Source: Naegleria gruberi | Taxonomy: Eukaryota | Length of the DNA stretch: 64,000 nt | Direction: 5' to 3' (one strand) | Assembly: GCA_000004985.1 (NCBI GenBank) | Contig: GG738880.1 | Shown here: positions 6,455 to 61,302 of the stretch, piece after piece | Layout of the letters: each line of letters starts with the position of its first letter | How positions within the stretch are numbered: position 1 is the stretch's first letter | Notes under the pieces: model-generated | The model's input: only the letters and a program-made list of their open reading frames with translations | Told to the model about the DNA's origin: nothing | Databases searched by the model: none | Position numbers and translations under genes: made by a program

Positions 6455-8044
6455 ATGAACAATTCACTTCTCCAACCCATCTCAAGTGATATTTGGAAAC
6501 ATCAGATATTTCCCTATCATTGTTATGCTGATTATATTTCATTGAAGAGGACATGTAGATTTTTGTATAAATTAATTATGAACAGTTCCGATTCTAAAAG
6601 ATTGGAAGGGTTTTTAAAATTTTGTAGATTGATGCATCGGACTGATCATGATGAATATTTGTTCACTTATTTGGAGCCTATTAATGTGATGCCATTCTCT
6701 TGTAGAACTTCGAATACTCTTCCTGATTATTCTTCGCCAACAACTACTCCTACAACAAGAGTATTTCCTAATTTCTCAACTTATTATTTAAATTGGGAAG
6801 AATTTGAATATTTAATTGCTGTAATTCCTCATCATGAGCTGAGAAGGATATGGGATAAATTTATAGTTAGTCCTGTATTTAGAGGAAGATTGATAATATC
6901 TGAAGTTGACCGAGATGGGATTAGTGAAACAATTGTTAACAAAATATTGTTAAATGCTATTAAACAAGATCCTAGAAAGTTCAACTCAATCTCTAAATGG
7001 ATTTCATGTACTTTACCCAACTTGTTATGTCAAATATCAGACATGCAAGAGCTGATGTTTCAGTTGATTTTAGATGGCGCACCAATAGCATTGCTCTCTG
7101 ATCGACTCAGACACAACAAGGAATTTATAATAGAATTATTGAGGTACTGTAATATACCATTGAATGAATTGGAGGAACAATTTCAGTACGATGTTGATGT
7201 AGTTCTCCAATCAGTCTCCAATGATCCCAATAATTATACATTCTTATCCAATTCAATTAAATCAGAAAGATCAGTGACCATACAAATGATTAATAATGCA
7301 TACAAGATTAAGGACTTTACCAATTCCAATAAGACTTTTGTTAGAATATTCGAAAAATATATACCTATGGTATTTAGAAACGATAGGGAAATTATGGAAC
7401 TTTCACTCAGACAAGATTCCTCCATCATGCCTCTCGTATCGGATGCATTGAAGAATAATAAGGAATTTGTTGTGAATGCATTGAAAATTTCCACCACATG
7501 CTTTCCTCACATTTCCTTAGAATTAAGAAGTGATCCAGAAGTTTGTCTATTAGCACTGAGAAACTCAAATTCCAAAACCATGATCATGACACATATGAAT
7601 TGTCTTCTCCTCTACGACGAAGATTTTATGAGAGAAATAGTATCTATTGATGGCATGTTACTTTCATATGCACCAAGTGCAGAAATCATACAGAATCGAG
7701 ATGTTGTTTTAATTGCAGTAAAACAGAATGGATTCGCCCTCCAACATGCAGATAAATCATTGAGGAATGATGAGGAAATAGTGAGAGAGGCCATTATGCA
7801 GGACGGAGAAACAATCATGTTTGCTTCGGAAAGATTGCGAGACAATTTTGAACTAATGGCTGTAGCAGTAACTAAATCAAAAGTTGCCCTTCTCTATGCA
7901 AGTGAACGCCTCAAATCAGATGAAAATCTAGTTTCAATTTCAGTCTACAGTCACCCCAGTAGTTTAAAATTTGCCTCTGCACAGCTATTACAGAATAGCC
8001 AATTCATAGAGCATTTGATTAGAAATGGTGTGACTAACTATTGA
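6455..8044 (+). CDS. F-box-like N-terminus followed by tandem DUF4116-type repeats (529 aa)
   Basis: N-terminus DIWKHQIFPYHCYADYISLKRTCRFLYKLI is F-box-like. Then about eight ~35-aa repeats, for example DREIMELSLRQDSSIMPLVSDALKNNKEFVVNALK, DVVLIAVKQNGFALQHADKSLRNDEEIVREAIMQDGETIMFASERLRDNFELMAVAV and LLYASERLKSDENLVSISV. These fit the DUF4116 consensus (..a.kqng.aLqyAs.eLknDkefvl.Av..). Confidence 0.6.
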   Translation: MNNSLLQPISSDIWKHQIFPYHCYADYISLKRTCRFLYKLIMNSSDSKRLEGFLKFCRLMHRTDHDEYLFTYLEPINVMPFSCRTSNTLPDYSSPTTTPTTRVFPNFSTYYLNWEEFEYLIAVIPHHELRRIWDKFIVSPVFRGRLIISEVDRDGISETIVNKILLNAIKQDPRKFNSISKWISCTLPNLLCQISDMQELMFQLILDGAPIALLSDRLRHNKEFIIELLRYCNIPLNELEEQFQYDVDVVLQSVSNDPNNYTFLSNSIKSERSVTIQMINNAYKIKDFTNSNKTFVRIFEKYIPMVFRNDREIMELSLRQDSSIMPLVSDALKNNKEFVVNALKISTTCFPHISLELRSDPEVCLLALRNSNSKTMIMTHMNCLLLYDEDFMREIVSIDGMLLSYAPSAEIIQNRDVVLIAVKQNGFALQHADKSLRNDEEIVREAIMQDGETIMFASERLRDNFELMAVAVTKSKVALLYASERLKSDENLVSISVYSHPSSLKFASAQLLQNSQFIEHLIRNGVTNY

Positions 8045-9302
8045 GTGAGACTCACTAGGTATTGCGTTATAGAACTCTATTCATTGCACCAACAACAAAC
8101 ACAACAGTGTGGTTGCATTCTTAGGTTATCCTTCTAATGAGGCGGTGAGTATTCCTCTATCAACTACAGCGAACATCCATGAACAAACTACAGTACCCCT
8201 TAATTACTATTGTATTTCGCAAAAAGGAACGCTTTCAAAAAGTCCATCAATAACAGAGATTTTCCTTTTATTATAATAATACAATGCAGTACGGCAGAGA
8301 TGTTGTCTAAATCGGAGTCAATTTGTGTTTATGGTGTTTGTTGCTGCCAAATGCGTTTTGAGATCATGAAACCTCATTTCAGACAGTGGACGATTTAAGT
8401 GTAGCCACCAGGTAAACAACACTAAAGTTTCTCTTCATGGCAGGTAAGCTTGACCAATTGGTGTAATAGCCTTCGATTTTCAAATTTTTCACTAAGTTCC
8501 TCAATCAACACCAGTTAAAACCCTTATTCAAACCAGCGATGATAGTGCGGAACAATTACATCCATCTTCATTGCCATTTAGAAACGATTCGTGATTGGAT
8601 TGAAGAGAACGAAATGGACAGTAATCAGGTTACATTGCAATAATTTATTGTACGTCTTTGTAGTAACGATAACACATTGATAGATGATCTTATTATTCGG
8701 TGATGATTAATTTGAATGAATAATTGTTGTAACAGATAACAAGTGTTGTTTCCAGTTGCGAAGGTGCCGTGACTATGCCCAAAACAATTCGAATGGAAAG
8801 ATAAAGTTGAATTTTTGACCAAATTTTGGCATTTTATCCGCTCGCATCCTTTTTGATTTGGGATAATTCCACCACCATTCACTTAAGGTCAGAGCACAAA
8901 TGGGTTTATGTTATTAATAAGGCATCACCGAGGACATACTCACAACCTTCTCTCTTCACAACTGCATCTATTGCACTAATCTACAACCAGGTAACAACTA
9001 GGTAACAAACACTAAAAACACTAGTAAACTATGATGAACCACTTTAGAAAAAGGAAACACTACCAACAAAAAATCACAACTAGAAGCAGCCATCAATCTT
9101 TTCGCTACTATCACACTATTTGAAATACAATAGATCCAAATAACCAGGTTACCTCCATCCATTTTCTCAATACTCATTGGTTGTTGTTTGTCCTTACCCC
9201 TCTTTGTTTGAGAAAAAAGAAAATCACCAACACAACCTCCCACCCCTTTGAATGCTTCTTTAATGCATTTAACCACTAATTCATAACATTATCATCATCA
9301 TC

Positions 9303-11333
9303 ATGTCTACATTTGAAAATACATCCAACTCTTCTACTAATATATCTGGTCAGTCAAAGAAGAGTGTATCCTCACCGACATCATCTGCTGATCAATCTCT
9401 TCGTGTTGGTACAACCACAGCAAGTAAATCACAACATGAAGAGTTTGTCCAACATCCACCACATGTACAACAAAGTTATTCTTCAACCACATCTGTAGCA
9501 TCACACCATGAAGCCATGTCTACCAATAATACACATGCATATAAAAGCATGTCTCCTTCCTATGCAAGTCCAGTCCATCATGTTGGTCCTATTGCCACTA
9601 GTACTATTACTACTAACTATCAAAATAGCTCCACAACCGATAGTTCTCAACAAGGAGCAATAAGCAACCATCGTTTATCCAATCATAGAAACTCTCCGCC
9701 AACAAGTGCATCCTTCATTTCCAGAGGCCAAACTTTTGTCCAACAAGAAAATGAATCAAACCACTTTAATAACAACACAACAAAAACATCCAACAACCAA
9801 CACGTTCCTTCTTCATATCCATTGCATCATCAACATTCTAGCATGGTGAATGGTAACAGTGTTGGTGGAAACGGTACTACGACAAATCATTCTAACAACA
9901 ATATGGCAAGCATTCATCACCACGATCAAGACAAGATTGCATATCATTCAAATCAAAGTATGAATAGTACTAATGCATCATACAGTATGAACACTAATTC
10001 ATTTGATAACATGGGTTCGAGATCAATTTCACATTCATCAAATAATGCATCTATACATGATAAAAATCTATTACCTTCTCTTCATATATTGATGGATCCT
10101 CCTACTTCAACCTCACCAAGTAATCCAATTCCACATAGTAATAACTCTCGTGTCTATGCACCTCCTAGCAGTAATCCTAATAATGGTCACATGCGTCAAT
10201 CTTCATCAAATAATTTACAACAATCAAATTATAATATGAATCATCAACCCCCAATCACACCAATTCCTTATTCACAACATGTGAATGATTATCCTCCAAC
10301 TAATCATGTTCCTCCTCCATACATTAACAAGGCTTCACATCACATAGACATGTTTTCAAATCCACCAAATAATAATATCATTAAATCCTCACCATCATCA
10401 TCTAACATGGATACAATGTATGCACCTCGTCCTATCAGGAGTAGGAGTAATACAAGTGGTCCTAATAATGCATCATTTAATTCTCCTCAATCATCCTCTG
10501 TTAATAATCATCATCAAAATACTGACAGTACTGTTTACTCATTTGAACAACCAGCCAAAATTAAAAAGAAGAAAGCCCTTCCTTCTTCTAACGACGATTC
10601 GAATGATGCAGATAAAAAGAATTGGAAAAAGAAGAGATTATTTAGTATTGATGAAGTGACAGATCTTGTTGCATTTGTAAAACAACGTTCCGAGAATCAA
10701 GAATTAACACGTGATGTTAATTATGCTATATTTAAGGAATATGAGAAATTACAAGATGAAAGAAGAAGAGCAAGTGTTTATAGAAAGAAATATGTGCAAT
10801 TATTTGAAAGACATTTGATTTCAAAAGACGGCACAATTGACCCTTCACTCTTCCAAGAATATGATCAAAGAACATCTTCTACTTCTAAATCTAAAGGCTC
10901 ACATCCAGAAGATGCTCAAGAAAAGAGAAAATTCTCTGATGTTGAAGAGGATTCTAGCTCTGAGGGAAGTAATATTGAAGAAGAAAAGAAAACAAAAAAG
11001 CTTAAGAGAGAATACTCTGATGAGGAAGATGAAGAAATAGAGAATGCATCCCCATCTGAGGAAAAGAAAAAGAATATGAATATTTGTGTATCATATAAGG
11101 GAAAGAATTATTTACATTCTATAGAGAAGCAAATTCTCCAAAATTCAGATTCAATCCACAATTATTTCAACCAATTGGCAGTCTCTTCATTGTGTTACAA
11201 CAGCGATACAGAACTCATTAGAAGCGAGTCTATTGAATACTTTGACTATTCATTTGGTGAATTCATTCAAATCAATTCATTTTCCATTACTAGGGTTCTC
11301 AAAAGCAGTCCTGTAAAATTGAGAATAAACTAA
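9303..11333 (+). CDS. hypothetical low-complexity (Asn/Ser/His/Gln-rich) protein with a charged C-terminal region (676 aa)
   Basis: Long uninterrupted ORF. The N-terminal two-thirds is compositionally biased. The C-terminal part (...KKNWKKKRLFSIDEVTDLVAFVKQRSENQELTRDVNYAIFKEYEKLQDERRRASVYRKKYVQLFERHLISKDG...) is not biased, followed by acidic/Lys-rich tails. No family recognised. Confidence 0.6.
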   Translation: MSTFENTSNSSTNISGQSKKSVSSPTSSADQSLRVGTTTASKSQHEEFVQHPPHVQQSYSSTTSVASHHEAMSTNNTHAYKSMSPSYASPVHHVGPIATSTITTNYQNSSTTDSSQQGAISNHRLSNHRNSPPTSASFISRGQTFVQQENESNHFNNNTTKTSNNQHVPSSYPLHHQHSSMVNGNSVGGNGTTTNHSNNNMASIHHHDQDKIAYHSNQSMNSTNASYSMNTNSFDNMGSRSISHSSNNASIHDKNLLPSLHILMDPPTSTSPSNPIPHSNNSRVYAPPSSNPNNGHMRQSSSNNLQQSNYNMNHQPPITPIPYSQHVNDYPPTNHVPPPYINKASHHIDMFSNPPNNNIIKSSPSSSNMDTMYAPRPIRSRSNTSGPNNASFNSPQSSSVNNHHQNTDSTVYSFEQPAKIKKKKALPSSNDDSNDADKKNWKKKRLFSIDEVTDLVAFVKQRSENQELTRDVNYAIFKEYEKLQDERRRASVYRKKYVQLFERHLISKDGTIDPSLFQEYDQRTSSTSKSKGSHPEDAQEKRKFSDVEEDSSSEGSNIEEEKKTKKLKREYSDEEDEEIENASPSEEKKKNMNICVSYKGKNYLHSIEKQILQNSDSIHNYFNQLAVSSLCYNSDTELIRSESIEYFDYSFGEFIQINSFSITRVLKSSPVKLRIN

Positions 11334-18102: not shown

Positions 18103-19410
18103 TTGTTCAATAACAAGATGGATAACAAGGAAAATAATTCATCACTACAAGAAAAGCATCTCTTGGAAAAATCACCAAAAGATATGACTCATGAAGAGTT
18201 GGTTAAAATTGCCACTCTCTATCAAGAGGAAAAGAGAAAATCGGAATCTGGAAACAAGCAAAATAAAAAGAAAAAGAAGAAGAAGGAGCAAGTTATAGAT
18301 TGGAGTACACAGACCTATAGACACATTGCTTTAAAGATTGCCTATCTTGGTTTTAATTATCAAGGATTATCGAAACAGCTTCACACTCCCAACACAATTG
18401 AACATCATCTTTTTGAAGCTTTGAAAACTTTAAAACTTATAGAGCACGAGGATAATTGTGAATTTACTAAATGTGGAAGAACTGATAAGGGTGTCTCTGC
18501 ACTTGGTCAAGTTGTCTCATTCAATTGTAGATATAATCCAAAGAAGAATGACTATGTTAGACTCATCAATAGTTTACTTCCAGACGATATTAGAGTATTA
18601 GCCTGGTGTCCAGTTTCCAAAGATTTTGATGCAAGATTTGGATGCCTCCAAAGAACATACAAATACTATTTCATACGACAAAATTTAAATATTGAAAAGA
18701 TGAAACAAGCTGCTGCTCATTTTGTTGGTGAGCATGATTTTAGAAATTTCTGTAAAATTAATGAAGAGGTAACAAACTTTAGAAGAAGAATTTTGAGTAT
18801 GGAAATTATCAAATCTGATCTATTACATCAGCAACATGGAAATGATGAGTATTTTGAAATTTATGAAATTGTAGTTTGTGGAACATCATTTTTGTGGCAT
18901 CAAGTTAGATGCATGACAGCAATTCTATTCCTTATTGGTGAAGGAAAAGAGGAACCTTCTGTCATTCCAGAATTATTAGATATTGAAAAGTACAAGGCAC
19001 GTCCAGTTTATCATATTGCATCAGAATTTCCACTTGTTTTATATGATTGTGTTTTTGAGGATTTGAAATGGATTCACACCAATGACATGATTTCATCTCA
19101 AGCCGATTTAACAAATCATTTCTATGAAATGTGGAGAAGTAGTTCATTGAAATCGACCATGTACAACATCTTTTATCAAGCTGCAAACAATACTCTAGTG
19201 GATAATAGTAATACATTTGGAAAAGATCTCAATACTAATGTGGATTCGAACACTGAAGATGCAACAAGAAAATATACAACTGTCAAGAAAGCTGTCAAGG
19301 CTATGAAACCAATTCAGAGAGGTCCCAAATATGTCAAGTTATTAGAAAGGCCAAGAGCCTTCTCTTTAGAGGAGTGTGTTGAAAGTTCCAAGAAGAAAAG
19401 AAAACAGTAG
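18103..19410 (+). CDS. tRNA pseudouridine synthase, TruA family (Pus3/Deg1-like), 435 aa
   Basis: YRHIALKIAYLGFNYQGLSKQ..., catalytic block CGRTDKGVSALGQVVSF (TruA RTDKGVHA motif with the catalytic Asp), ...RVLAWCPVSKDFDARF, ...FVGEHDFRNFCK..., LWHQVRCM. There is an N-terminal Lys-rich extension. Confidence 0.85.
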   Translation: MFNNKMDNKENNSSLQEKHLLEKSPKDMTHEELVKIATLYQEEKRKSESGNKQNKKKKKKKEQVIDWSTQTYRHIALKIAYLGFNYQGLSKQLHTPNTIEHHLFEALKTLKLIEHEDNCEFTKCGRTDKGVSALGQVVSFNCRYNPKKNDYVRLINSLLPDDIRVLAWCPVSKDFDARFGCLQRTYKYYFIRQNLNIEKMKQAAAHFVGEHDFRNFCKINEEVTNFRRRILSMEIIKSDLLHQQHGNDEYFEIYEIVVCGTSFLWHQVRCMTAILFLIGEGKEEPSVIPELLDIEKYKARPVYHIASEFPLVLYDCVFEDLKWIHTNDMISSQADLTNHFYEMWRSSSLKSTMYNIFYQAANNTLVDNSNTFGKDLNTNVDSNTEDATRKYTTVKKAVKAMKPIQRGPKYVKLLERPRAFSLEECVESSKKKRKQ

Positions 19411-32540: not shown

Positions 32541-33761
32541 TTGAAAAAAATGTCAACAACAATCCAATCATCATATGATGATTCAAGGAGTAATAGCTCT
32601 CCTTCCAGTAATATTGGACCGGAAGCAGTTTCAGATCAACAATTGAAGGAGGAAATTTTAAAACAAATTAAATTATTGGAGGAGGAACATCAAATTACCA
32701 TTCTCCTTGTTACAGATGTCGGAAGTAGAGCCTACAATTGGGAAAATCCAACAAAGAGTGATTACGATTTAAATTTTATTTATACGAGACATTGGAAGTA
32801 TTACATGACAATTCAAAATAAGCCACAAACATTAAAGAAGGAAACGTTCATAGATTTGGAGAGTGATTATCTCATTAAAAGAACAAAGAGTTCACACAAT
32901 TTTTATCATGATTGCAAGGAAGGAGAATTAACAAATCAAAAACTTAGAGTAGAGTGCAATTTTGTAGGATTTGATATCAAGTATGCAGCAGATTTCTTTT
33001 TCAAATCGAATAGAGCTATTGTATTTCTCCTTATGTCCCCTTGCGTATATTACGTTCATCCAAAGGCTCATTCTTTATTTTTTGATAAGTGGATTCCAAT
33101 GTGCCACACTCACGTTCAAAGAAGACATCACTTGCAAGAAATGATTCACATTGCTAGATACAACATTAATAGATATATCCTAGGAAGAAGAACTGTCAGA
33201 GTGAAATCATATCTCTACATTTTACATCACTTGTTCTATGTTTTATATTTGTTCAAGAGAAAGGATGAAGATTCTTTCAAGAAGAGGCTTCCACCTTTGG
33301 AATTTAAGTATTTATTCGAGGATTTAAAGGGAGACTTTATTTCTCCAAAATTGGCTGGACTTGTTGAGTTTTTAATGAAATTGAAAGTGAGCGGAGATAA
33401 TTTTTGTAAAATAGTCATTCCACCAGAGGAAGTTAAACCTGTGGAGATTAAAGAAAGTAAACCAACAGACAACACAGAAAATTCTGAGGAGGTTCCTGCT
33501 AAAAAGAAATCAAAGAAACAAATCAAAAAGGAAATTAGAGCTCAAGCCGATGAAAACCTCAAAAGTTTGGAAGATGATGGTTCTAAGAATGATATTCACG
33601 TTGGGCACAGCTTGGAAATTGAATTATTTACCATTTATTGGTATCGTAAAATGAATTATTGGATTTATCACATGGAAAAGGATTACATGGACGGAAATGA
33701 TGTTGATAAATTATTATTGGAAGCAATTGATTTGTATGAAGGGCCAGAGTTTAGCATTTGA
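32541..33761 (+). CDS. Pol-beta-superfamily nucleotidyltransferase, RlaP-like (predicted nucleotidyltransferase, COG3541/PF10127-type), 406 aa
   Basis: ITILLVTDVGSRAYNWENPTKSDYDLNFIY contains the hG[GS]...[DE]h[DE]h NTase signature (GS-R-A-Y ... S-D-Y-D-L). This matches the bacterial RlaP block (l.GSraYG.....SDyDlrGvf), recalled from memory. A helical region and a Lys-rich C-terminal tail follow. Confidence 0.5.
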   Translation: MKKMSTTIQSSYDDSRSNSSPSSNIGPEAVSDQQLKEEILKQIKLLEEEHQITILLVTDVGSRAYNWENPTKSDYDLNFIYTRHWKYYMTIQNKPQTLKKETFIDLESDYLIKRTKSSHNFYHDCKEGELTNQKLRVECNFVGFDIKYAADFFFKSNRAIVFLLMSPCVYYVHPKAHSLFFDKWIPMCHTHVQRRHHLQEMIHIARYNINRYILGRRTVRVKSYLYILHHLFYVLYLFKRKDEDSFKKRLPPLEFKYLFEDLKGDFISPKLAGLVEFLMKLKVSGDNFCKIVIPPEEVKPVEIKESKPTDNTENSEEVPAKKKSKKQIKKEIRAQADENLKSLEDDGSKNDIHVGHSLEIELFTIYWYRKMNYWIYHMEKDYMDGNDVDKLLLEAIDLYEGPEFSI

Positions 33762-33763
33762 GA

Positions 33764-35152
33764 TTACATAAAAGCATTTTTGATCTTCTTTTTCTGCTCA
33801 TTGGCCATCTTTTTCTTCCTTTTCTCATTGAGTTTTTCCTCTAATTCTATTCTTCTTTGCTTTTCCTCTTCCGTTTCAACATATTCAGATCTTTGACTTG
33901 TTGTTGGAATAGAACTTGATAGTTCAACTACATTAGTTGGTTGATTATCACTCACATTAGGCATTTGGGATGAATTATTTTCCTCATTAACTTCTTCTGG
34001 AATGAGTCCAGCATCATCTCCACCTAAACGTGAATCATTTCCTTGAGAATTAATACCCCCTCCAAAGGAATGTTGTGATTGCTCTCGTGTATCTGCAATC
34101 TTTTGTTTCTTACTTGTTTTTGGTGGTGAGAAGAGATGATTCATATATTTGGTATATAATTGTTGGAGGAGAGGATTCTTATTAGATTCGGTAGAATCAG
34201 TCTTAGAATTTGTGAATGAAATATCACACATGCCTAGAGAATCACTGACGAGCAGGATCTTATCCAATTGATCCAAAATGTCAGAATTTTGAGTGGAATT
34301 ATTAGCTCCACTATACATTTGTCTGAAATTAATAAGTTCTTGCTCCTTTTTCAAAAGAAGGGATTTCATTTGATCAATTTGTTGATTTTGAGTTTGAACA
34401 ATTCCAAGTAGAGGTCTAATAACATGATTCAATATAAATAAATTTTCCTTATTGTAAAATCTAATATTATTCAATTCGCTCTTTTGACTATTTTCATCTT
34501 GGTCTTGTTTTCTCTTTTTTGGATTTTCTTCCTCATCCTGAATAAGAATATAGGAATGATCAATTTCCTCCTGATCCTCTCCTCCCTTAGAAATATTAGG
34601 ATCAATACTATCACAATGAATTTCCCAATAGAAAGGTAAACTTATTTGTACTTGTGTTGGTAAAAGAGCTCTGATAGTAACTACCAATTTGGTTCTCTTC
34701 TTTTTCAGAGTGCTTGCATGAACGCTCTGAATAGAATCCATCAACATGTCCATCGCTGTTTCCTCTTCACAATTTTTCTCACCTCTCACTTCAATCTTTG
34801 GTTGATTCTTCTCCTGTATCGAATCCAAATCATAATGAATTAAAAACTGTTCAATTTGTTGGACCAAAGATTCAGCAGACATATTCAACCCCTTACAATA
34901 CTTGTTACTATCACTTTCAATTTCTTCCTTTTCATATCGTTTCTTCCAAACACATTTCATATTGGAAATATAAAGTACAAATCCATTCGTGATGGTTTTA
35001 AATTTTACAAAGAATGATTCACCCAACGGATCGACCGACACTGGAAGACGAATCCAATTAATATTCATGATTAATTTTTCATCGGAATCTTGAATTATTT
35101 TTTCAAAAGATTCCGAAAATTTCAAAGAACTTCCCAAGCTTTGTGATGACAT
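33764..35152 (-). CDS. XRCC4-superfamily-like protein (head domain + coiled-coil stalk + low-complexity tail), possible XRCC4/XLF-type NHEJ factor (462 aa)
   Basis: N-terminus ...GESFFVKFKTITNGFVLYISNMKCVWKKRYEKEEIESDSNKY... resembles the XRCC4 head ([26 protein letters not shown]; XRCC4 comparison recalled from memory). This is followed by ...LVQQIEQFLIHYDL..., then a long coiled coil (NQQIDQMKSLLLKKEQELINFRQ) and an acidic/Ser-rich tail ending in a KR-rich motif. Confidence 0.35.
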   Translation of the reverse strand: MSSQSLGSSLKFSESFEKIIQDSDEKLIMNINWIRLPVSVDPLGESFFVKFKTITNGFVLYISNMKCVWKKRYEKEEIESDSNKYCKGLNMSAESLVQQIEQFLIHYDLDSIQEKNQPKIEVRGEKNCEEETAMDMLMDSIQSVHASTLKKKRTKLVVTIRALLPTQVQISLPFYWEIHCDSIDPNISKGGEDQEEIDHSYILIQDEEENPKKRKQDQDENSQKSELNNIRFYNKENLFILNHVIRPLLGIVQTQNQQIDQMKSLLLKKEQELINFRQMYSGANNSTQNSDILDQLDKILLVSDSLGMCDISFTNSKTDSTESNKNPLLQQLYTKYMNHLFSPPKTSKKQKIADTREQSQHSFGGGINSQGNDSRLGGDDAGLIPEEVNEENNSSQMPNVSDNQPTNVVELSSSIPTTSQRSEYVETEEEKQRRIELEEKLNEKRKKKMANEQKKKIKNAFM

Positions 35153-47929: not shown

Positions 47930-48002
47930 TATACCCTGTGGGACTCGAACCCACAACCCCCGGCTCCGTAGGCCGATGCTCTTCCAATTGAGCCAAGGGT
48001 AC
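47930..48002 (-). tRNA. tRNA-Arg (anticodon ACG)
   Basis: Reverse complement: GTACCCT TG GCTC AATTGGAA GAGC A TCGGC CTACGGA GCCGG GGGTT GTGGG TTCGAGT CCCAC AGGGTAT A. All four stems pair, and the D-loop, T-loop (TTCGAGT) and anticodon loop are canonical. Confidence 0.85.
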
Positions 48003-52632: not shown

Positions 52633-55600
52633 ATGTCATCACAAGAGTTGTTGGAGATTGACAATCATAGTACGGAACATTCAAATGTTAACACTTCCAT
52701 CACTTCTCATCATCACGAATATCTTCACTATGGAGATTTCATTTCACTCTTCACTGAATCGAGTGGTGGAAGTATTGGATTTCTCAGTGTGGATGGAATT
52801 AATATTAATTGTAATAATATTCAAGGGTTTGTTTCTCTTTCAAAACTTAATAATTTTAATAATTTAATTAAATTGATAATCAATACATTAATCATTGGTT
52901 GCCAACATTAACGTTATTTAAACAAAATTAAAAAATGTTCGGAAAACAATTATTGGATCGCGATTGATATCTTATGTTTATTAATAATAATAATTGAATG
53001 ATGAATTGATAATGATAATAGGAATGTAAAACAAATTCGTTGTGGTCTTTCAGAGGCTGTGTCCTTGACTGGACATGAATCAAATCAACAACAAGCCTCT
53101 CACAATCAACAACAAACAACTACTTCCGACTCAAAGACAAAGCAAATTCCTCCCACCTATATGATCTCTAACTTTCAACAATGTGTTTTTCAAGTTTGTT
53201 ATCCGAAGAGTTATTCTGCCTTGAAAAAGTACAAACAACATTTGGATGAATTGGAAATCAAGGCTAGTGGTAATAGTGCAAAGAAGAGTCAAGACAATTC
53301 TGACAATGATTCGAAGAAGGTTATTCATCATGAGAGCAATGAAGTTGCTCAATTAAAGGAACGAATGGAACGTGAGATTCAACAAAATGAATTGGAAGCT
53401 CTGAGAAATTATGGAAAACCTGTTACATATGGCTCATCAATTCAATTACTTCATGTACAAACTCAAAGCTTTTTGACTGTTGCGAGAGAGTCTGCAGAAA
53501 TGCAGAAGGATTGTCTCAGATTATCATTGGATGATGTTGGATCGAAGTATTCACATTTTTCTCTACTTCCATATTTCAATTATCGTAGAGATGGAGAAAT
53601 TGTGAAACTTTCTGACAAGATTAGAATTTGGAATAGAAAATCTGCACAATATGTACAATTTTCATACTATAGATATAGTAATGCTGTAGAATCAGGCTTG
53701 AAGAATGCTCAAAGTATTGGTTCAAACGTTAATGAGATGGATAAATCATCTTACACACAATTAGCTAAAGAAGCTGTAAAGAATAATGCCAACCTTAAAA
53801 AATTCACATACGACAATAGAAGAGAAGTTAACATGTCAGCATCGAGTGCATTCTCACATTGGAATTTGAGAGTATTTTCACCTTGTAAAGATTCCCCTAC
53901 AGAAAGTAACAAATTCCTCAAAGCAGGTGATATAATAAGAATTTATCACAAAGAATTTGATGGTTTTTTAACTGTCAATGAAAAGACTGGAAGAGTCAAG
54001 CTGAAAAAGTCATTTATCAATCCTCTTATTGGAAGCTCAGCAAATGGAGAGGCATCTTTTTCAAATTCAGGTTTAAGTTCAATGAAGGGATCAGGTATGA
54101 AGTCATTCTCATCCAAATCAAGTCTGGTCTCTGGTCAATACTCTAGTTCGTTCAATCTGGCAGATTCCTTCTCATTGAGCAGTAAGAGTAGCCTGTCACT
54201 GGTTGACTCTTCTGAGAATACTCTTTCTGGTGTTATACAGGATGACTTTGATGTAACTTGTCATACATTGTGGCAAGTAGAAATGTTGGACTCAACCAAA
54301 GGAGGAGAGTTGAGGAAGAATTTCGTTTATAGGTTGAGACATGTCAGTACAGGAAACTATCTCATAGCAAGAATGGCCACTGATGATGAAGAGAAAAAAG
54401 AAAGAGATGCAGAAGATGCTGAAATTTCTGAATTCTCTCACAGTTCTTTCTACATTTCATCTGAATCAAGCTCTAGTTCTATTCAATTGCATAATACAAC
54501 AAGCCCACTTTCTAAAACACCAATCAAAACCAAGAAGGAGAATAATCTTAGCTTGTTCGTAGAACCACAAGATAATTGTACAAACCCTCTCAATATGTTG
54601 TTTAACTTGCAAGATTCCATGCTTTCTACAGATCACTCTGAGTTTTTCTTGAATGGGCAATTCAGACTCAGACATTATCTAACTAATACTTGGTTGCATT
54701 CAGTTAATTCGCAGAAAGCTTTTTCTAAATCATCTGAAAGAGCCTCTCTCAAATCTCATTACTCACCAGTATGTACCACTCAAGGCATGAGAGAGGAGGA
54801 TGTATTGACTTGTGTGTTGGTTTCCAGACCAGAAAGTGAAGACTTGTTCACAGTGCAAAGTTACATCCCAATTCTCAAATACTTTACTCAAAAACTTAAT
54901 GATGGATCTGTAAATAGGAGTGACATCAAGTTGTACATTGACGTAATTTCTAGTTGTATAAGATTTTGTACTAGCAGTTCTGAAATGGATCCCCTCCTGA
55001 GAAGTGGTATTCCAATCAAAAAAAACCAAAAATTAATGAGAGAAAAGGGTGTCATTACTATTGTTATGGATATTTTGATGGCACTTATTTCTAAGAATTA
55101 TGTAAAATTGGAAGAGTTATCAACAATTCAAGAAAGGAGTGACAAGATTGACTTTTTTGATGTAATTCAGTATTCATACAGATTCATTAGACAAGTTGTA
55201 CTTACAAACGAATCAAATGGTTTATTTATGGCACAGTACATTAACTTTATTCAGACCAACATTGAACATAGTATTAGTGCATCTGAGGCTCTTTTGCAAA
55301 TTTTATCCAACAATTTTTCCTTGTTGAATAAGATTACAGAGGACCAAATTGACTTTTTCATCAAATTATTATTCACAAACCCTACTAGTTCTAGTTCATT
55401 GAAGCAACATACAGAAAGATATGGAGGTTCTCTTAAGAAAGCTGTCTACTTATCCTTCTTGACCAGTCTAATCATATGTGAAGGAAAAACTGTCGTGAAA
55501 AACCAAAAGTATATTAGTAACCTGCTCTTCTCAACATTCAAGGAGCAAATGTTGAAGGTATTTGTAATACCAAGAATTAGAAAATCAGATGATAAGGTGA

Positions 55601-58600
55601 TTATCGATGTGAATCGTGTAGAGTATGAATTGGTCAATTTTTCAAAGTCTGCCACCAATATCGATCATATTACTTATTCAAAAAATAATTTTGAACTAAT
55701 GGTCTTCTTCCAAGAGCAAATCAAACTCTTTGCTGCCATGTGTACCGGAAGTAATGAAGCTACCGAAATGACAAGAGCAGCCATTATTCAGCTATTTACT
55801 TTTGAAATTGTGTACAAGTGTGTTGCAGAGTCGGCACTTACTCCAGCCTTGAGAACTTCTTTTGTCCATCTGCTTATGCACTGTTTCGTAGACACTGAAA
55901 AGAACGAAAAGAGAACATTTATTGAATTGACTCGTAAACTTGAATCCCTATCTGGAAAGAGTGTTCACGAATATACATCCCGTGAGCTTGGTGAGGTCAA
56001 GCAATTTCTAGAAGTTTTCTTCAGAGAGAATACCTCATTAGATATTGGATACGAGAAGAGAGATGTCAATAATTTTATTCTTTCCCTTGCTCAGTTGTGT
56101 GCAGGAATGATTGAATTTGGTATTTTCAATTTGAAAGACTTTGAAGAGACAGATCTCCTTGTTTCATTATTTAACATTCTCAGATCAGACAACGACACCA
56201 AAAATGGCTTACCATTACGTGATGAAGAAAGGTTCAAGCAATCAGAAGAAAACGTAACTGTAACTCAAATCAAGATTGAAATTGCCAAGATATTTCACAT
56301 GTTGCTAGACTTGCTGTTAGATAAGAGAATTACGAAATTCCTTCAATTCTTTTGGATGAAATACAAAATTGATGATATCAAGATTGTAATAGAGGAAGAA
56401 TCTGACTCATTGCTTGGTGTGACCTCCAATGACAAACAACAAGCACAATTGCTAAATTTACGTAAAAAGGAATTGGATAGAATATTCCAAGAAATGGACA
56501 CAAAGGAAAATCAGGTTTTGAAAGATATTTTCGAGAATACTACCCTTCCTTTCAAGATTATGTCAGAGTTTTCACTTAAAATTATCAACTTGACCTCCTA
56601 TGAGAATCAAGAACTATCCACAATATGTCTTCGTTTATTGATCAGAAGATACAGAGCAGCTGACGAGCTTGCAGAAGCTCTACCAAAAGTTGAATTGATT
56701 GTCTCAAGAGAAATGGCTCGTTCCTATGACCATTTGAGAAAACAGACTGCCGACTTGAGAAGTATTTTTGGTTATGGTAGAAGTAATTTCCTAGGTGCTC
56801 GTCACATCAGTGAATACGAAGTTAAAAAAGCTATGAAAGCCCTTGGAGAAGTTATTAGTGATATCAAAACTAATGGAAAGAGAAGTCAAAGAATTATTCG
56901 TAATCTCAATTTATTTGAACTCGTTTTGTCTGTTTTGAGGAAGGAGTGGATGGTTCCAACTGATATTCAAGAAAATTGCCTGACCATTTTAACAGAGTTT
57001 GTTAGAGGTAATCCAGACAATCAGAAACTTCTCTTCCCTTACATTGAATTTTTCATGAGACTGATCACAGAGAACAAGAAGCTTAGCAAGTATATTGTTC
57101 TATTGATGTGTGAAATTGTTAAGAATAATAGAACATTGTGCAGTATTTTGGAAGAAAAATTAATAGAGCAATACTTTGATTTGATTGCTGAACAGAGAAG
57201 TGCCTTCATGTTGCTTTTCTTAAGAACCATTTTGGCAACTCATAATAATACACCAATCAAAAGAAACCAATCCCTCATTACCAAATATATGGTTGAGAGA
57301 AAGAAAGATGTTTGTGTTCTATTCAAAGACGAAGAAGGTATGAGAGAACGTAACAATAGAATTACCAAGGAAGAACACAAAACAGAACCAGATGGTATTC
57401 TCAATTATCACATTGCACTATTGCACTTGATGGCTACTGCTGCTGATGGCAAGAATAGAGAAAGTGAGTTGCGTTTACAAACATTGTTTTCTTTTGAAGA
57501 GTTGTTGGAACAAGTTGTTTCTCCTTTCACATTGGCCATGATTAGAAATCCTCTCATCAAGATTATCAATGAAGTCTATATCAATGTGGAAAAGGCAACT
57601 GATGACCACCAGGAAAAGAAAACCGCCAATGTACATCATCCTTTGATGTATAAAATGTTTTCAAAGATGATTAGAGAGTTGGAATTTGTGGAGATGCTTC
57701 AAACTCTAGATGTGAATGCAATTGTAGGGTCAGAAGGAGCTACCAACTCACCTTCTCCCTCTGGTACTGGTGCTTCTCTATCTGCTAGCAGTGCTACTAA
57801 ATTATCGAATGCTAGTGTCAGACCTTCAATGAACCTTACCAATCAAGCACTGATTAGACAGAGTAGAGCTATAACCAATAGAAATTCATCCATTGCACCT
57901 AAAATGCAAGTAACTGAAGAGGATTTGGAAAAATTCCATGTTGACAATTACTATATATTCGAAGTTATGATTCCAGTTGTTCAGAATTATTTCCACTTGC
58001 ATTTCCCTCCTCCTAATCTGTTAAAGGAACAACTCGATGTTGCAGAAGATTTATTGCTGAAACTCATTGATTTACACAAATTCACGGCAAATACTGACCA
58101 AAGAGAACAAATTTACAAGTGTATTACTGCCATGTGGAAGAAGAGTATGTCTTCAGAGTCACAATTAGCCATTACCAAGTTCGTAACAAACAAGAACACA
58201 AAGGCAAAGATGACAAGATCCAGATTTGAAGTATCTTCTACAGTAGAAACTGATGAGTACATTCACAAGAGCTATACAAAGTATTTGCAAAAAAGAATTA
58301 TTAACAAGGTGGAAGAATTTTCGCACTTTAATAGGATTGGTGCTCTCTTTGAAAAGTATAACGGATTTGTGAAGGTACTTGTTAGAGCCCTCAGAAAGAT
58401 TAATACACCTCTATTGAATTACAGTCCATCCCTTCTTGAAGTGGGACTTTTGAGTATGGAAATTCTCAAAGATATTGTCAGATCTCAGAATAAGAGAGCT
58501 AAAGAGGTGAAACAAAAGGGAGAGAACGATGTTCCAGAAATTGAAAATTTGAACTATGTGGAAAATAAGCTTCCAGTAATGATCATTGAATTGATGACAT

Positions 58601-61302
58601 CATTTAATCCTGCTATTGTTAGATCTGCCATAGATCTTGGTATCTTGATTTTGAACCGTGGTGATAAGGCAATACAGGATGAGTTTTATAGAATATTGAC
58701 AGAAACTGACTCGTCCTACTTCTTTGAATCATTGAGAGATAGAATCCGTCTTGGTAAGACAGAAATCAAGGAGAGAAAGAATTACCTCAAGAAGAAAAGG
58801 GATAAAGACTATGCCTTGTTCAAACAACGTCAAAGACAAGAAGTTGCCAAGGTTCGTGCTAAGGATGAAAATGATTCCTCCCGACCAATGGAAGAGGAAG
58901 AAGAAAGAGATTTACAAGAGGACTTTGTTGAAATGGGACATATTGAATTACTTTTCGAGTTTTTGAGACTTTTATGTGAAGGACACAATGTTGAAATGCA
59001 AACACTTCTCTTAAATCAACCAGTTAATACTCTGAACGTGAATGTTGTTACAGAAACAATTGAATATATGATTGCTCTAGAGAAAAAGATTGATTTTGAT
59101 AACGTTCAAATTGCTATTCAAGGTTTCAAGACCTTGACAGAATTCATTCAAGGCCCAGCTCTTGTCATCCAACAAGCTATTGGTACTTCTCCGAGATTCT
59201 ACGCCAGACTGGTCAATGAAATCATGTCTAAAACATATGAAGATGGAAACTTGCTAAAACAACAAGAACTTGGATTGAAGAGGGAAGTTTTACTTACTCT
59301 CAATGCTCTTCTAGAAGGAATGAACAATAGTGTATTTGATTTTATGAGACATTCCCTGAACTTTGATGAATTGGAGCATTTCCTTTTGTTCTCTGCCAGA
59401 TTTTTGCATTCTCTAGAAACCAAACATGAGAACTCTGATGCAAAGGACGAATACAATGAAATCAAGCAAAGGTTGAGAAGAGATTTTGATCATCACTTCC
59501 TTCATGAAGCCACACGTGACAAGGCTAATCCAGTTATTGCAGAAGATTACATTGCAGTCTATATGCCAATGATCAAGAATTTATTGAAAGAGACTGGTAA
59601 TTTTGCCTTTTTCTTGCTTAACATTTTCAGAGATGGTGAAAGAGAAAATTTGAGAAATATTTCAAGAAGTGCCTTTATTTCTGTAGAGGAAGAAAACAAA
59701 CTTTTAAGGATTACCAACATGTTGGATAATCATTCTCAATTAGTTTCAGTATTTTCCGAATCGACAGCAAGTATTGAAGTGTTGCGTGATAACAAGATTG
59801 AGAAGATTTACTTTTCCAAACCAACCATATGCAACAATTTGATGGACAAGGCAAGAAGTAATTATGTAAACTCTCTGGATGTCATGGCACCTGAAGAGAA
59901 AGTTCGTACTCTTTACAACCATACCTTCAGTATTTTCCAAGTTGAAATGGAGCATTATGAATTGATGAAGAAAAAGTCCACCATCAAGGATAAATTAGAA
60001 GATCTAGTTGGTATAGCCAACAAACACACAGAAGAAGTGACAGAGTTTGTGCCTACAATGGCTCAACTGAGAAATAAGTACAAGAGGAAAAAGAAACTCT
60101 CCATTGGAACTAGTTCTAAAAACAGGGACCAAACAGCAAGTTGGGAATTTATTGCTCACTGGTGGGACAGAATTCGTTTATTATCTTTTATATTTTGTGT
60201 GGTTCTTAACATTTTCGTTTTAGGATTTTTGAAGAGACTCTACTCAGCAAACACAGTAGATGACATTCCAGTACCTGGAGATTTGGATTTTGATATTACG
60301 TTGGCATCAAAATATCCTACAACAAGAAATTTGGCTGGTGATATTATTATAACTATTCTGGGAGCCATTCAATTGATAACAACAGCATCATTGGCCATTA
60401 TTTACGCAAAAGTTTTTATTACTCTTGAAGTGAAGAAGAGATTCAAACTCAAAAAGAGAGAGAAATGGGAAAATATTCCAAGAAATAGAGAATTCTATTG
60501 GAAATTTATCTTTTACGCACTTCAAGATTTACAAATGTGGTTCTTTGTACTGTACTTTGTTCTCAGTGTATTAGGATTATTGATATCTCCAATAGTTTAC
60601 AGTATTCAATTGTTCGAAATTGTTTTCAGATTTAAGAGTTTGAATGACGTGTTGAGGGCTGTCATTTCCAATGGAAAAAAGCTCTTTTTTGCAGGCATGT
60701 TACTTGGAATAACCATGTTCTTGTTTGGATTGCTATTCTTCTCATGGTTCTCTAATGATTTCACACTTGAATCTAATGGAACAAAAACATGTGAAAGTGT
60801 GTTGGAATGTTTTGTGACAATGTTTGACTATGGTTTCAGAAGTGAGTCATCATGGGAAAATATGTATCCACACAATCCAACTGTTGGAAGGGCCATCCTA
60901 GACTTGGCATTTAACATGATTGTAATCGTGTACCTTTCTAACGTTGTGTTCGGTACAATTCTAGATTCTTTCCAAGAATTGAGAGCAGCAAGAGAGGAAC
61001 GTAAGAATGAAATTAGAGAAAAGTGCTTTATATGCGCTCTGGAAAAGAGTAAATTTGATACAAAAGCCAATGAAGGAATTACCTTTGAAAAGCACATTAA
61101 GGAAGAGCATTACTTGTGGAATTATGTCTACTTTTTAATTTACTTGTACGAGAAACCTGAAACTGAATATACAGGTGTTGAAAGTTATATTTTCGAAAAG
61201 TGTGAGGAGAATGATGATGTAACAAGCTTCTTCCCAATATTTAGGTCTAAAACAATTGAGGAAAGCGAACAAACAAAGGTTTCATTAGGAGGATCGGATT
61301 AA
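52633..61302 (+). CDS. inositol 1,4,5-trisphosphate receptor-like Ca2+ release channel (IplA-like): a short first exon (52633..~52826) plus a large exon to 61302; intron boundaries unresolved
   Basis: Exon 1 LHYGDFISLFTESSGGSIGFLSVDG matches the IP3R N-terminus ([27 protein letters not shown]). Main ORF: FQQCVFQVCYPKSYSALKK (compare FRDCLFKLCPMNRYSAQK); an MIR-like region; C-terminal multi-TM channel region; and CFICALEKSKFDTKANEGITFEKHIKEEHYLWNYVYFLIYL, which is the IP3R C-terminal tail signature. IP3R comparison sequences are recalled from memory. Confidence 0.8.

Follow-up and report, generated by a model that had tools for sequence, protein, structure and literature searches.

What is an RlaP-type nucleotidyltransferase (NTase) gene doing in the genome of the heterolobosean Naegleria gruberi, and could its product still work as an enzyme? 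The question concerns an open reading frame (ORF) at positions 32541-33761 (+ strand) of a 64,000-nucleotide stretch of N. gruberi DNA (contig GG738880.1, assembly GCA_000004985.1), the whole of which is called the window hereafter. An earlier note, made from the sequence alone, had described it as a single-exon gene with native-looking codon usage, encoding an RlaP-like pol-beta NTase with the GS...DxD motif, and as a domesticated horizontal acquisition rather than a contaminant. These descriptions were retained here, and the protein was found to belong to a clade, filed as ExN, in which the third catalytic aspartate of the family is replaced by asparagine in every member.

The ORF was uninterrupted. 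The ORF tool called its start at a TTG codon (32541); the first ATG, in A-rich surroundings, lies at 32550 and opens a frame of 403 codons ended by a TGA at 33759-33761. Residues 52-78 of the protein (LLVTDVGSRAYNWENPTKSDYDLNFIY, nt 32703-32783) hold both the GSR and the SDYD motifs. The window protein matched Pfam PF10127 (RlaP, 'RNA repair pathway DNA polymerase beta family') over residues 36-283 with E=6e-22 and 79 bits, against a gathering cut-off of 23 bits, and PHROG 14344 ('nucleotidyltransferase') with 1.8e-21. A profile of the ExN clade aligned with canonical RlaPs over nearly their full length in hhalign (probability 100%, E=3e-51). None of the other NTase families (PAP/TUTase, Mab21/cGAS, OAS), whose only likeness to the window protein is the pol-beta superfamily catalytic core, was matched in Pfam at E up to 1; PF10127 was the only Pfam family matched, in line with the RlaP assignment of the earlier note, and identity as a typical eukaryotic NTase was rejected. 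The NCBIfam and PADLOC defence models gave nothing meaningful for the window protein, and neither the protein nor a 133-sequence profile retrieved a homolog by sequence from the PDB, in a copy evidently lacking the Pseudomonas fluorescens enzyme (PfRlaP). The ORF is a real, intact gene, and its family match lies far beyond chance. By homology its product is a member of PF10127; the family definition includes 'three strictly conserved aspartic acids', one of which is missing, and the protein was therefore filed under an RlaP-derived subfamily, ExN, rather than as a canonical RlaP.

The departure from the family lies in the active site. In an alignment of 133 sequences (11 of the ExN clade and 122 canonical), the column of the third catalytic carboxylate, an 'h-D-h' pattern just before a G-W-D block, holds Asp in 116, Glu in 5 and Gly in 1 of the canonical sequences, and Asn in all 11 ExN members (N137 in the window protein). 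Column counts, aligned blocks and hhalign agreed on this point, and the register at N137 is secure because there is no gap in the alignment of the G140-x-D142 anchor, which follows three residues later. A downstream third acidic residue, which the earlier note had listed among the features to check, is therefore not at its family position. Two residues upstream of N137, E135 is Glu in 11 of 11 clade members, in a column that is variable among canonical ones. Judging from beta-strand periodicity and the h-E-h-N-h pattern, E135 would stand on the same strand face as N137 and may supply the third carboxylate in place of the Asp. About ten further near-invariant family residues were exchanged in the clade (Table 1). 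One of them, R75, would be a cross-strand neighbour of E135 if the DxD and E135/N137 strands pair antiparallel, and its loss would then accompany the change at the catalytic column. The two changes can occur separately, since the third Asp is kept in three bacterial RlaPs that have His in place of R75.

Much of the family signature was nevertheless kept. G58, S59, R60, S70, D71, D73, Y78, Y85, N154, K219, Y221 and Y223 were present in all 11 clade members, and G140 (9/11) and K279 (10/11) in nearly all of them. Within the clade 32 columns were invariant, including the clade-specific E135, N137, H227, W64 and Q89, despite identities to the window protein of 26-55%, which indicates a remodelled site under purifying selection rather than decay.

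Compared with the bacterial RlaPs of P. fluorescens and P. aeruginosa (PMC12776372), the window protein is homologous over nearly its full length, is predicted to have the same order of NTase domain, helical domain and C-terminal helix, and keeps the signature residues GS, R60, SDxD, N154, KxYxY and K279. It differs from them by N137 and the invariant E135, by two insertions (residues ~105-130 and 290-345) and by its low identity to canonical members (18-28%), and its gene is a monocistronic eukaryotic gene without any ligase neighbour found in the scanned window. The AlphaFold2 (AF2) model built with the 133-sequence alignment (predicted local distance difference test score, pLDDT, 86.1; predicted TM-score, pTM, 0.82) comprised an NTase domain, a helical domain at residues 171-289, of the substrate-binding type that the earlier note had asked about, and C-terminal helices; the terminal helix of PfRlaP comes back to its NTase domain in the crystal structure (PMC12776372). 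A 'Lys-rich tail' had also been remarked upon. The Lys-rich stretch is there (K318-K327), but it is internal and not a tail, as about 58 conserved C-terminal residues of the fold follow it. This patch might serve in nuclear localisation or in RNA binding.

Predicted folds of phage RlaP types (the T4 NrdC.11 clade, BcepSaruman, Ackermannviridae and Klebsiella phage Eowyn) superposed on that of the window protein with target-normalised TM-scores of 0.85-0.86. The best labelled sequence match was the nucleotidyltransferase of Burkholderia phage BcepSaruman (P0020; 27% identity, E=3e-14), which, unlike ExN members, keeps the canonical Asp as the 116 of the 122 canonical sequences do; phage RlaP-type proteins are also of another length than the window protein, at ~260-280 residues. 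Two-domain adenylyltransferases (the DrrA/SidM AMPylation domain, GlnE, ANT(3'')(9)/AAD(9), LinB and KNTase) showed 6-13% identity and no sequence-profile match, and have proteins or antibiotics as acceptors.

The gene is at home in the Naegleria genome. Five ORFs flanking it were exact matches to the N. gruberi proteins EFC42301 (RWP-RK), EFC42302 (SNF2 helicase), EFC42303, EFC42376 and EFC42377, on a 416-kb scaffold, and its GC content (0.33) and GC at third codon positions (GC3, 0.31) were the same as those of neighbouring genes. Gene order was collinear with N. lovaniensis (SNF2 helicase, Myb gene, RlaP, XLF-like gene, EF-hand gene), where the ortholog carries a 185-nt GT..AG intron splitting the Arg codon of the GSR motif (L001 10157-10341). 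Contamination was rejected on the strength of the exact neighbours, the native composition, the conserved gene order and this intron, and a pseudogene on that of the intact 403-codon ORF and the conserved orthologs. No exact or near-identical database protein was found for the ORF, although N. gruberi proteins were included; its best match was an N. lovaniensis protein of only 50% identity, auto-named 'Nucleotidyltransferase'. EFC42302 (25784) and EFC42303 (37957), which are consecutive accessions on the + strand, skip the gene. Because no exact entry exists and consecutive accessions pass over the locus, the reference annotation of N. gruberi seems to lack the gene at 32550-33761. The N. fowleri model FDP41_007012 (P0153, 219 amino acids, aa) is a truncated, partly mis-spliced form of the 477-aa ortholog P0002.

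Relatives of the window protein were few among eukaryotes. Orthologs 47-55% identical to it occur in N. lovaniensis, N. fowleri and Willaertia magna, and an ortholog of Pharyngomonas kirbyi is present in its EukProt transcriptome. A word-indexed protein search, even with a 13-sequence profile, returned Naegleria and Willaertia proteins only. HMMER, run exhaustively with a four-sequence profile against 1.84 billion representatives, gave 1472 matches at E up to 1e-3, six of them with E <1e-30: two are from Naegleria and Willaertia, three (P0005, P0006 and P0007) lie on contigs with eukaryotic-looking neighbours, and the sixth is P0004. The eukaryotic matches that could be named or identified by context came from Naegleria, Willaertia, Pharyngomonas, the EukProt entry P0011 and a few contigs of uncultured eukaryotes. 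These contigs also carry CDC20-like WD40, BTB, F-box, V-ATPase A and PRP39-type HAT-repeat genes and a split Ras gene, and share no gene order with the Naegleria and Willaertia loci besides the RlaP gene itself. The 122 canonical sequences were mostly 250-290 residues long; most of the nearest ones were metagenome proteins, and the sole named near one was that of the jumbo phage BcepSaruman. A scan of IMG/VR found no relative, and a metagenome scan added two further ExN members and three canonical bacterial proteins, with no informative context. In the literature PF10127 counts >10,000 members, overwhelmingly bacterial and many from phages (including T4 NrdC.11), with 'a small number' from eukaryotes and archaea (PMC12776372), so that both this account and the exhaustive search agree with the suggestion that the family is bacterial and phage-borne and sparse in eukaryotes.

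In a neighbour-joining (NJ) tree from a 253-column trimmed alignment, the 11 ExN sequences were monophyletic in 188 of 200 bootstraps, with Pharyngomonas basal and P0008 nested without support. A second PF10127 protein of W. magna (P0024, ABK040_010408, 369 aa; L006 8001-9110, JBEGDK010000041.1) resembles the clade in being heterolobosean and in a eukaryotic genomic context. Unlike ExN, it keeps the canonical E-x-GSR, R75 and third Asp, and it fell within the clade in 0 of 200 bootstraps; it is probably a separate lineage or acquisition.

Three bacterial-looking RlaPs with His at the residue-75 column and the canonical third Asp (L012 2446-3381, L013 801-1460 and L015 7998-8261) could be nearer the donor lineage. 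P0008, an ExN-type protein of 264 aa without the eukaryotic inserts (L009 3706-4500), is encoded on a Logan contig of SRR22387979 (GC 27%) beside a GspF/PilC-like T2SSF gene and a TPR protein. This contig may be bacterial, possibly from an amoeba symbiont, and if so the gene may have been exchanged between protists and bacteria within the clade, in either direction. An RlaP-like fold was also matched in longer proteins of giant viruses that infect amoebae (Yasminevirus, 596 aa; Terrestrivirus, 515 aa; Klosneuvirus KNV1) and in baculovirus HE65 proteins; the giant viruses are possible vectors for transfer into amoebae.

What the protein does was considered from its characterised relatives. The RlaPs of P. 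fluorescens and P. aeruginosa, the sole characterised members of the family, extend RNA 3'-OH ends by one or two nucleoside monophosphates, with a preference for the broken end of a mimic of cleaved tRNA, and were proposed to put back, ahead of ligation, nucleotides that ribotoxins have removed (PMC12776372). Phage RlaPs were predicted to act in the same way, and in jumbo phages RlaP-type NTases and RNA ligases have matching distributions (PMC7824862). N. gruberi encodes 15 putative RNA ligases, two of them RtcB (PMC4408790). The most likely function was judged to be the addition of nucleotides to RNA 3' ends during RNA repair, with an altered specificity (probability about 0.55). The ExN protein would bind an NTP-metal complex through D71, D73 and probably E135, and would extend broken RNA, e.g., tRNA or rRNA fragments, at its 3'-OH by one or a few nucleotides before the ends are sealed by one of the many RNA ligases of Naegleria; its substrate or nucleotide specificity would probably be altered relative to the bacterial RlaPs. 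Enzymatic activity is plausible, not assured, given the exchange of the third Asp for Asn.

A genomic hint in the same direction came from W. magna. On contig JBEGDK010000031.1 (L002 7446-11155), an RtcB gene (7446-9020, +) is followed about 1 kb downstream by the RlaP ortholog (10001-11155, +). The two were rejected as immediate neighbours, since an unannotated NHL-repeat ORF (9025-9978, -; Pfam NHL 2.4e-14) intervenes. This RtcB is distant from human and archaeal RtcB (E ~1e-20 to 1e-25) and 43-47% identical to bacterial 'release factor H-coupled' (RFH) RtcB, and has orthologs in N. gruberi, N. fowleri, N. lovaniensis and Acrasis. By a rough estimate, the chance of lying within two genes of any of ~17 ligase genes among ~15,000 is a few in a thousand per species, and the linkage was taken as suggestive but weak. 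RFH-coupled-type RtcB was also observed more widely in eukaryotes (P0156-P0160, P0171, P0172 and P0227), in three Naegleria species, Willaertia, Acrasis, Capsaspora, Nuclearia and a rotifer; the heterolobosean ones bear N-terminal extensions of 86-173 residues without a Pfam match.

Several observations weigh against a role in RNA end repair. The third catalytic Asp is missing in the clade, and its replacement by E135 is deduced from strand periodicity; other near-invariant, probably cleft-lining residues are changed as well (E56D, R75N/H, K145Y/N/H, E159F/H, W160, H197, Y198, R226H). Among solved structures, the nearest are adenylyltransferases acting on proteins or small molecules rather than RNA polymerases. 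Linkage to RtcB was seen once, in Willaertia, and is interrupted there by the NHL-repeat ORF on the opposite strand; the RtcB and RlaP genes lie on different contigs in N. lovaniensis and N. gruberi, and the Acrasis RtcB locus has no RlaP. In the window, Pfam recognised no ligase domain in 21 of the 22 ORFs that reach 230 aa (all but the 2747-aa ORF at 53059-61302) or in two shorter ones, and tblastx with the Willaertia RtcB found nothing in the 64 kb, nor was any other linked RNA-repair gene seen. Operon logic applies only weakly in eukaryotes.

Two other functions have to be set beside RNA 3'-end addition. The ExN protein may have lost catalysis through the Asp to Asn exchange and only bind nucleotides or RNA ends, for example as a sensor, scaffold or regulator in RNA metabolism. 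The presence of N137 in all 11 members, the exchange of many other near-invariant residues and a Pfam score of just 79 bits, where the canonical members tested reach 150-229, would fit such a pseudoenzyme. We nonetheless regard it as unlikely, as GS, R60 and both DxD aspartates, which decayed NTases usually lose, are invariant in the clade, and as E135, if placed on the same strand face as N137, would leave three carboxylates available; Glu serves as the third carboxylate or catalytic base in some structural neighbours, e.g., AadA. An active NTase with another acceptor or product (protein AMPylation, small-molecule adenylylation, or synthesis of nucleotide or oligonucleotide signals) would account for the wholesale exchange of cleft residues as a change of substrate, and would be in line with fold neighbours that are protein or antibiotic adenylyltransferases and HalB. 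These likenesses are at fold level only, at 7-13% identity, and the RNA-modifying PfRlaP has the same two-domain architecture (PMC12776372); the sole family members characterised biochemically act on RNA 3'-OH, and the PADLOC defence models were unmatched, so that this option is held to be quite improbable. Synthesis of nucleotide signals, raised in the earlier note, found no specific support beyond the distant fold match to HalB. RNA 3'-end addition was thus kept as the preferred function. A fuller version of it is offered tentatively, as a scenario rather less probable than not: a eukaryote-adapted RlaP offshoot in which the carboxylate moved from position 137 to E135, R75 was removed and the cleft relined, giving a new nucleotide or RNA-end specificity, and which might work with the bacterially derived RFH-type RtcB in cytosolic or nuclear repair of ribotoxin-damaged tRNA or rRNA.

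The origin of the gene was weighed on the same footing. Its distribution and tree support an old horizontal acquisition from the bacterial/phage RlaP family followed by vertical inheritance in Heterolobosea; because the gene is present in Naegleria, Willaertia and Pharyngomonas, acquisition would have preceded the divergence of the known Heterolobosea. Orthologs are confined to Heterolobosea and a few uncultured eukaryotes rather than being eukaryote-wide, and the horizontal reading of the earlier note was retained. The contrary explanation, in which an early-eukaryote RlaP was lost almost everywhere, or the gene is a bacterial or viral contaminant or a decaying pseudogene, can draw on the long stem of the clade, for which no close bacterial donor was identified (the nearest canonical representatives score ~80 bits in BLASTP), and on the low-GC contig of P0008, which leaves transfer possible in either direction. 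Contamination and pseudogene are excluded by the locus and ortholog evidence set out above, and early-eukaryote descent would need losses in nearly all lineages for a family whose >10,000 members are mostly bacterial or phage (PMC12776372); this explanation was accordingly considered very improbable. Horizontal acquisition therefore remained the preferred origin.

Table 1. Features of the RlaP-derived gene in the window, and near-invariant RlaP residues exchanged in the ExN clade.
Feature	Coordinates	Strand	Basis
RlaP-derived nucleotidyltransferase coding sequence, complete, single-exon	32550..33761	+	ORF; Pfam RlaP 6e-22; end-to-end alignment with Naegleria and Willaertia orthologs
Ser/Asp-rich N-terminal region, poorly conserved, predicted disordered, residues 1-24	32550..32621	+	AF2 pLDDT 37-47; variable among orthologs
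Pol-beta-type NTase domain, residues ~25-170	32622..33059	+	AF2 helix 25-47 and strands 50-56, 72-79, 94-104, 131-142, 166-169, pLDDT >90; Pfam match from residue 36
G58-S59-R60, hG[GS] motif	32721..32729	+	Canonical G 121/122, S 120/122, R 121/122; clade 11/11
S70-D71-Y72-D73, metal-binding DxD motif	32757..32768	+	Invariant in 133/133 aligned sequences
Lineage-specific insertion between catalytic-hairpin strands, residues ~105-130	32862..32939	+	Absent from canonical RlaPs; AF2 helix 105-115, then lower-confidence loop
E135-C136-N137; N137 in the third-catalytic-Asp column, E135 clade-invariant	32952..32960	+	Column counts; same register in MAFFT and hhalign
Alpha-helical (substrate-binding type) domain, residues ~171-289; K219-x-Y221-L-Y223 block and K279	33060..33416	+	
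Low-complexity insert, Naegleria/Willaertia-specific, residues ~290-345	33417..33584	+	Absent from other clade members and bacteria; pLDDT <50 at residues 300-312
Basic patch K318-K327 inside the low-complexity insert	33501..33530	+	K322, K323 and K326 invariant in four heterolobosean orthologs
Conserved C-terminal helices, residues 346-403; clade-invariant E358 and D386	33585..33758	+	AF2 helices 355-373 and 382-396, pLDDT ~97; align with canonical RlaP C-terminus
E56			Canonical 119/122; clade D
W62			Canonical 114/122; clade mostly Y (9/11)
R75			Canonical 120/122; clade H/N/S
K145			Canonical 120/122; clade Y/N/H/S
E159			Canonical 115/122; clade H/F, E kept in 1/11
W160			Canonical 114/122; clade M/A/L
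H197			Canonical 109/122; clade S/E/Q
Y198			Canonical 113/122; clade M/L
R226			Canonical 115/122; clade mostly H (9/11)

Other genes of the window were also scanned. The convergent neighbour at 33764-35152 (-) encodes EFC42376, named 'predicted protein', in which an XLF/Cernunnos N-terminal domain was recognised (Pfam E=4.4e-8) along with weaker XRCC4 and XLF coiled-coil matches, making it, on these domain matches, a candidate factor of non-homologous end joining. Its stop codon lies only 2 bp from that of the RlaP gene, and the 3' untranslated regions of the two genes must therefore overlap. The other Pfam-scanned ORFs of the window carried ordinary eukaryotic domains (ankyrin, F-box, epimerase, tRNA pseudouridine synthase, Myb or GPS/RGS) or no recognised domain, in keeping with a native RlaP gene. 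The TruA/Pus1-type tRNA pseudouridine synthase ORF (18103-19410, +; Pfam 4.2e-35) and a tRNA-Arg(ACG) gene (47930-48002, -) showed no evident link to the RlaP gene.

The biochemical activity of RlaP was first given in a December 2025 preprint, for two Pseudomonas enzymes only, and eukaryotic members appeared there as a few nodes of a similarity network (PMC12776372). The literature searched, which left the founding 2016 RlaP paper outside, held no description of the heterolobosean clade, of its altered catalytic site or of the N. gruberi gene. Databases already contain eukaryotic PF10127 proteins, and what is new is the altered active site of the ExN clade. Proteome-based surveys under-count this gene, because the N. 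gruberi annotation seems to lack it and one N. fowleri annotation has it in truncated form. The gene shows that selection has maintained an RlaP derivative with a systematically altered active site in a whole eukaryotic lineage, from before the split of Naegleria, Willaertia and Pharyngomonas. If inactive, the ExN protein would be a new pseudo-NTase. If active, it would be a natural experiment in moving a catalytic carboxylate in a pol-beta NTase, and would give Naegleria, whose RNA-repair repertoire is unusually rich with 15 RNA ligases, a further step that restores RNA ends.

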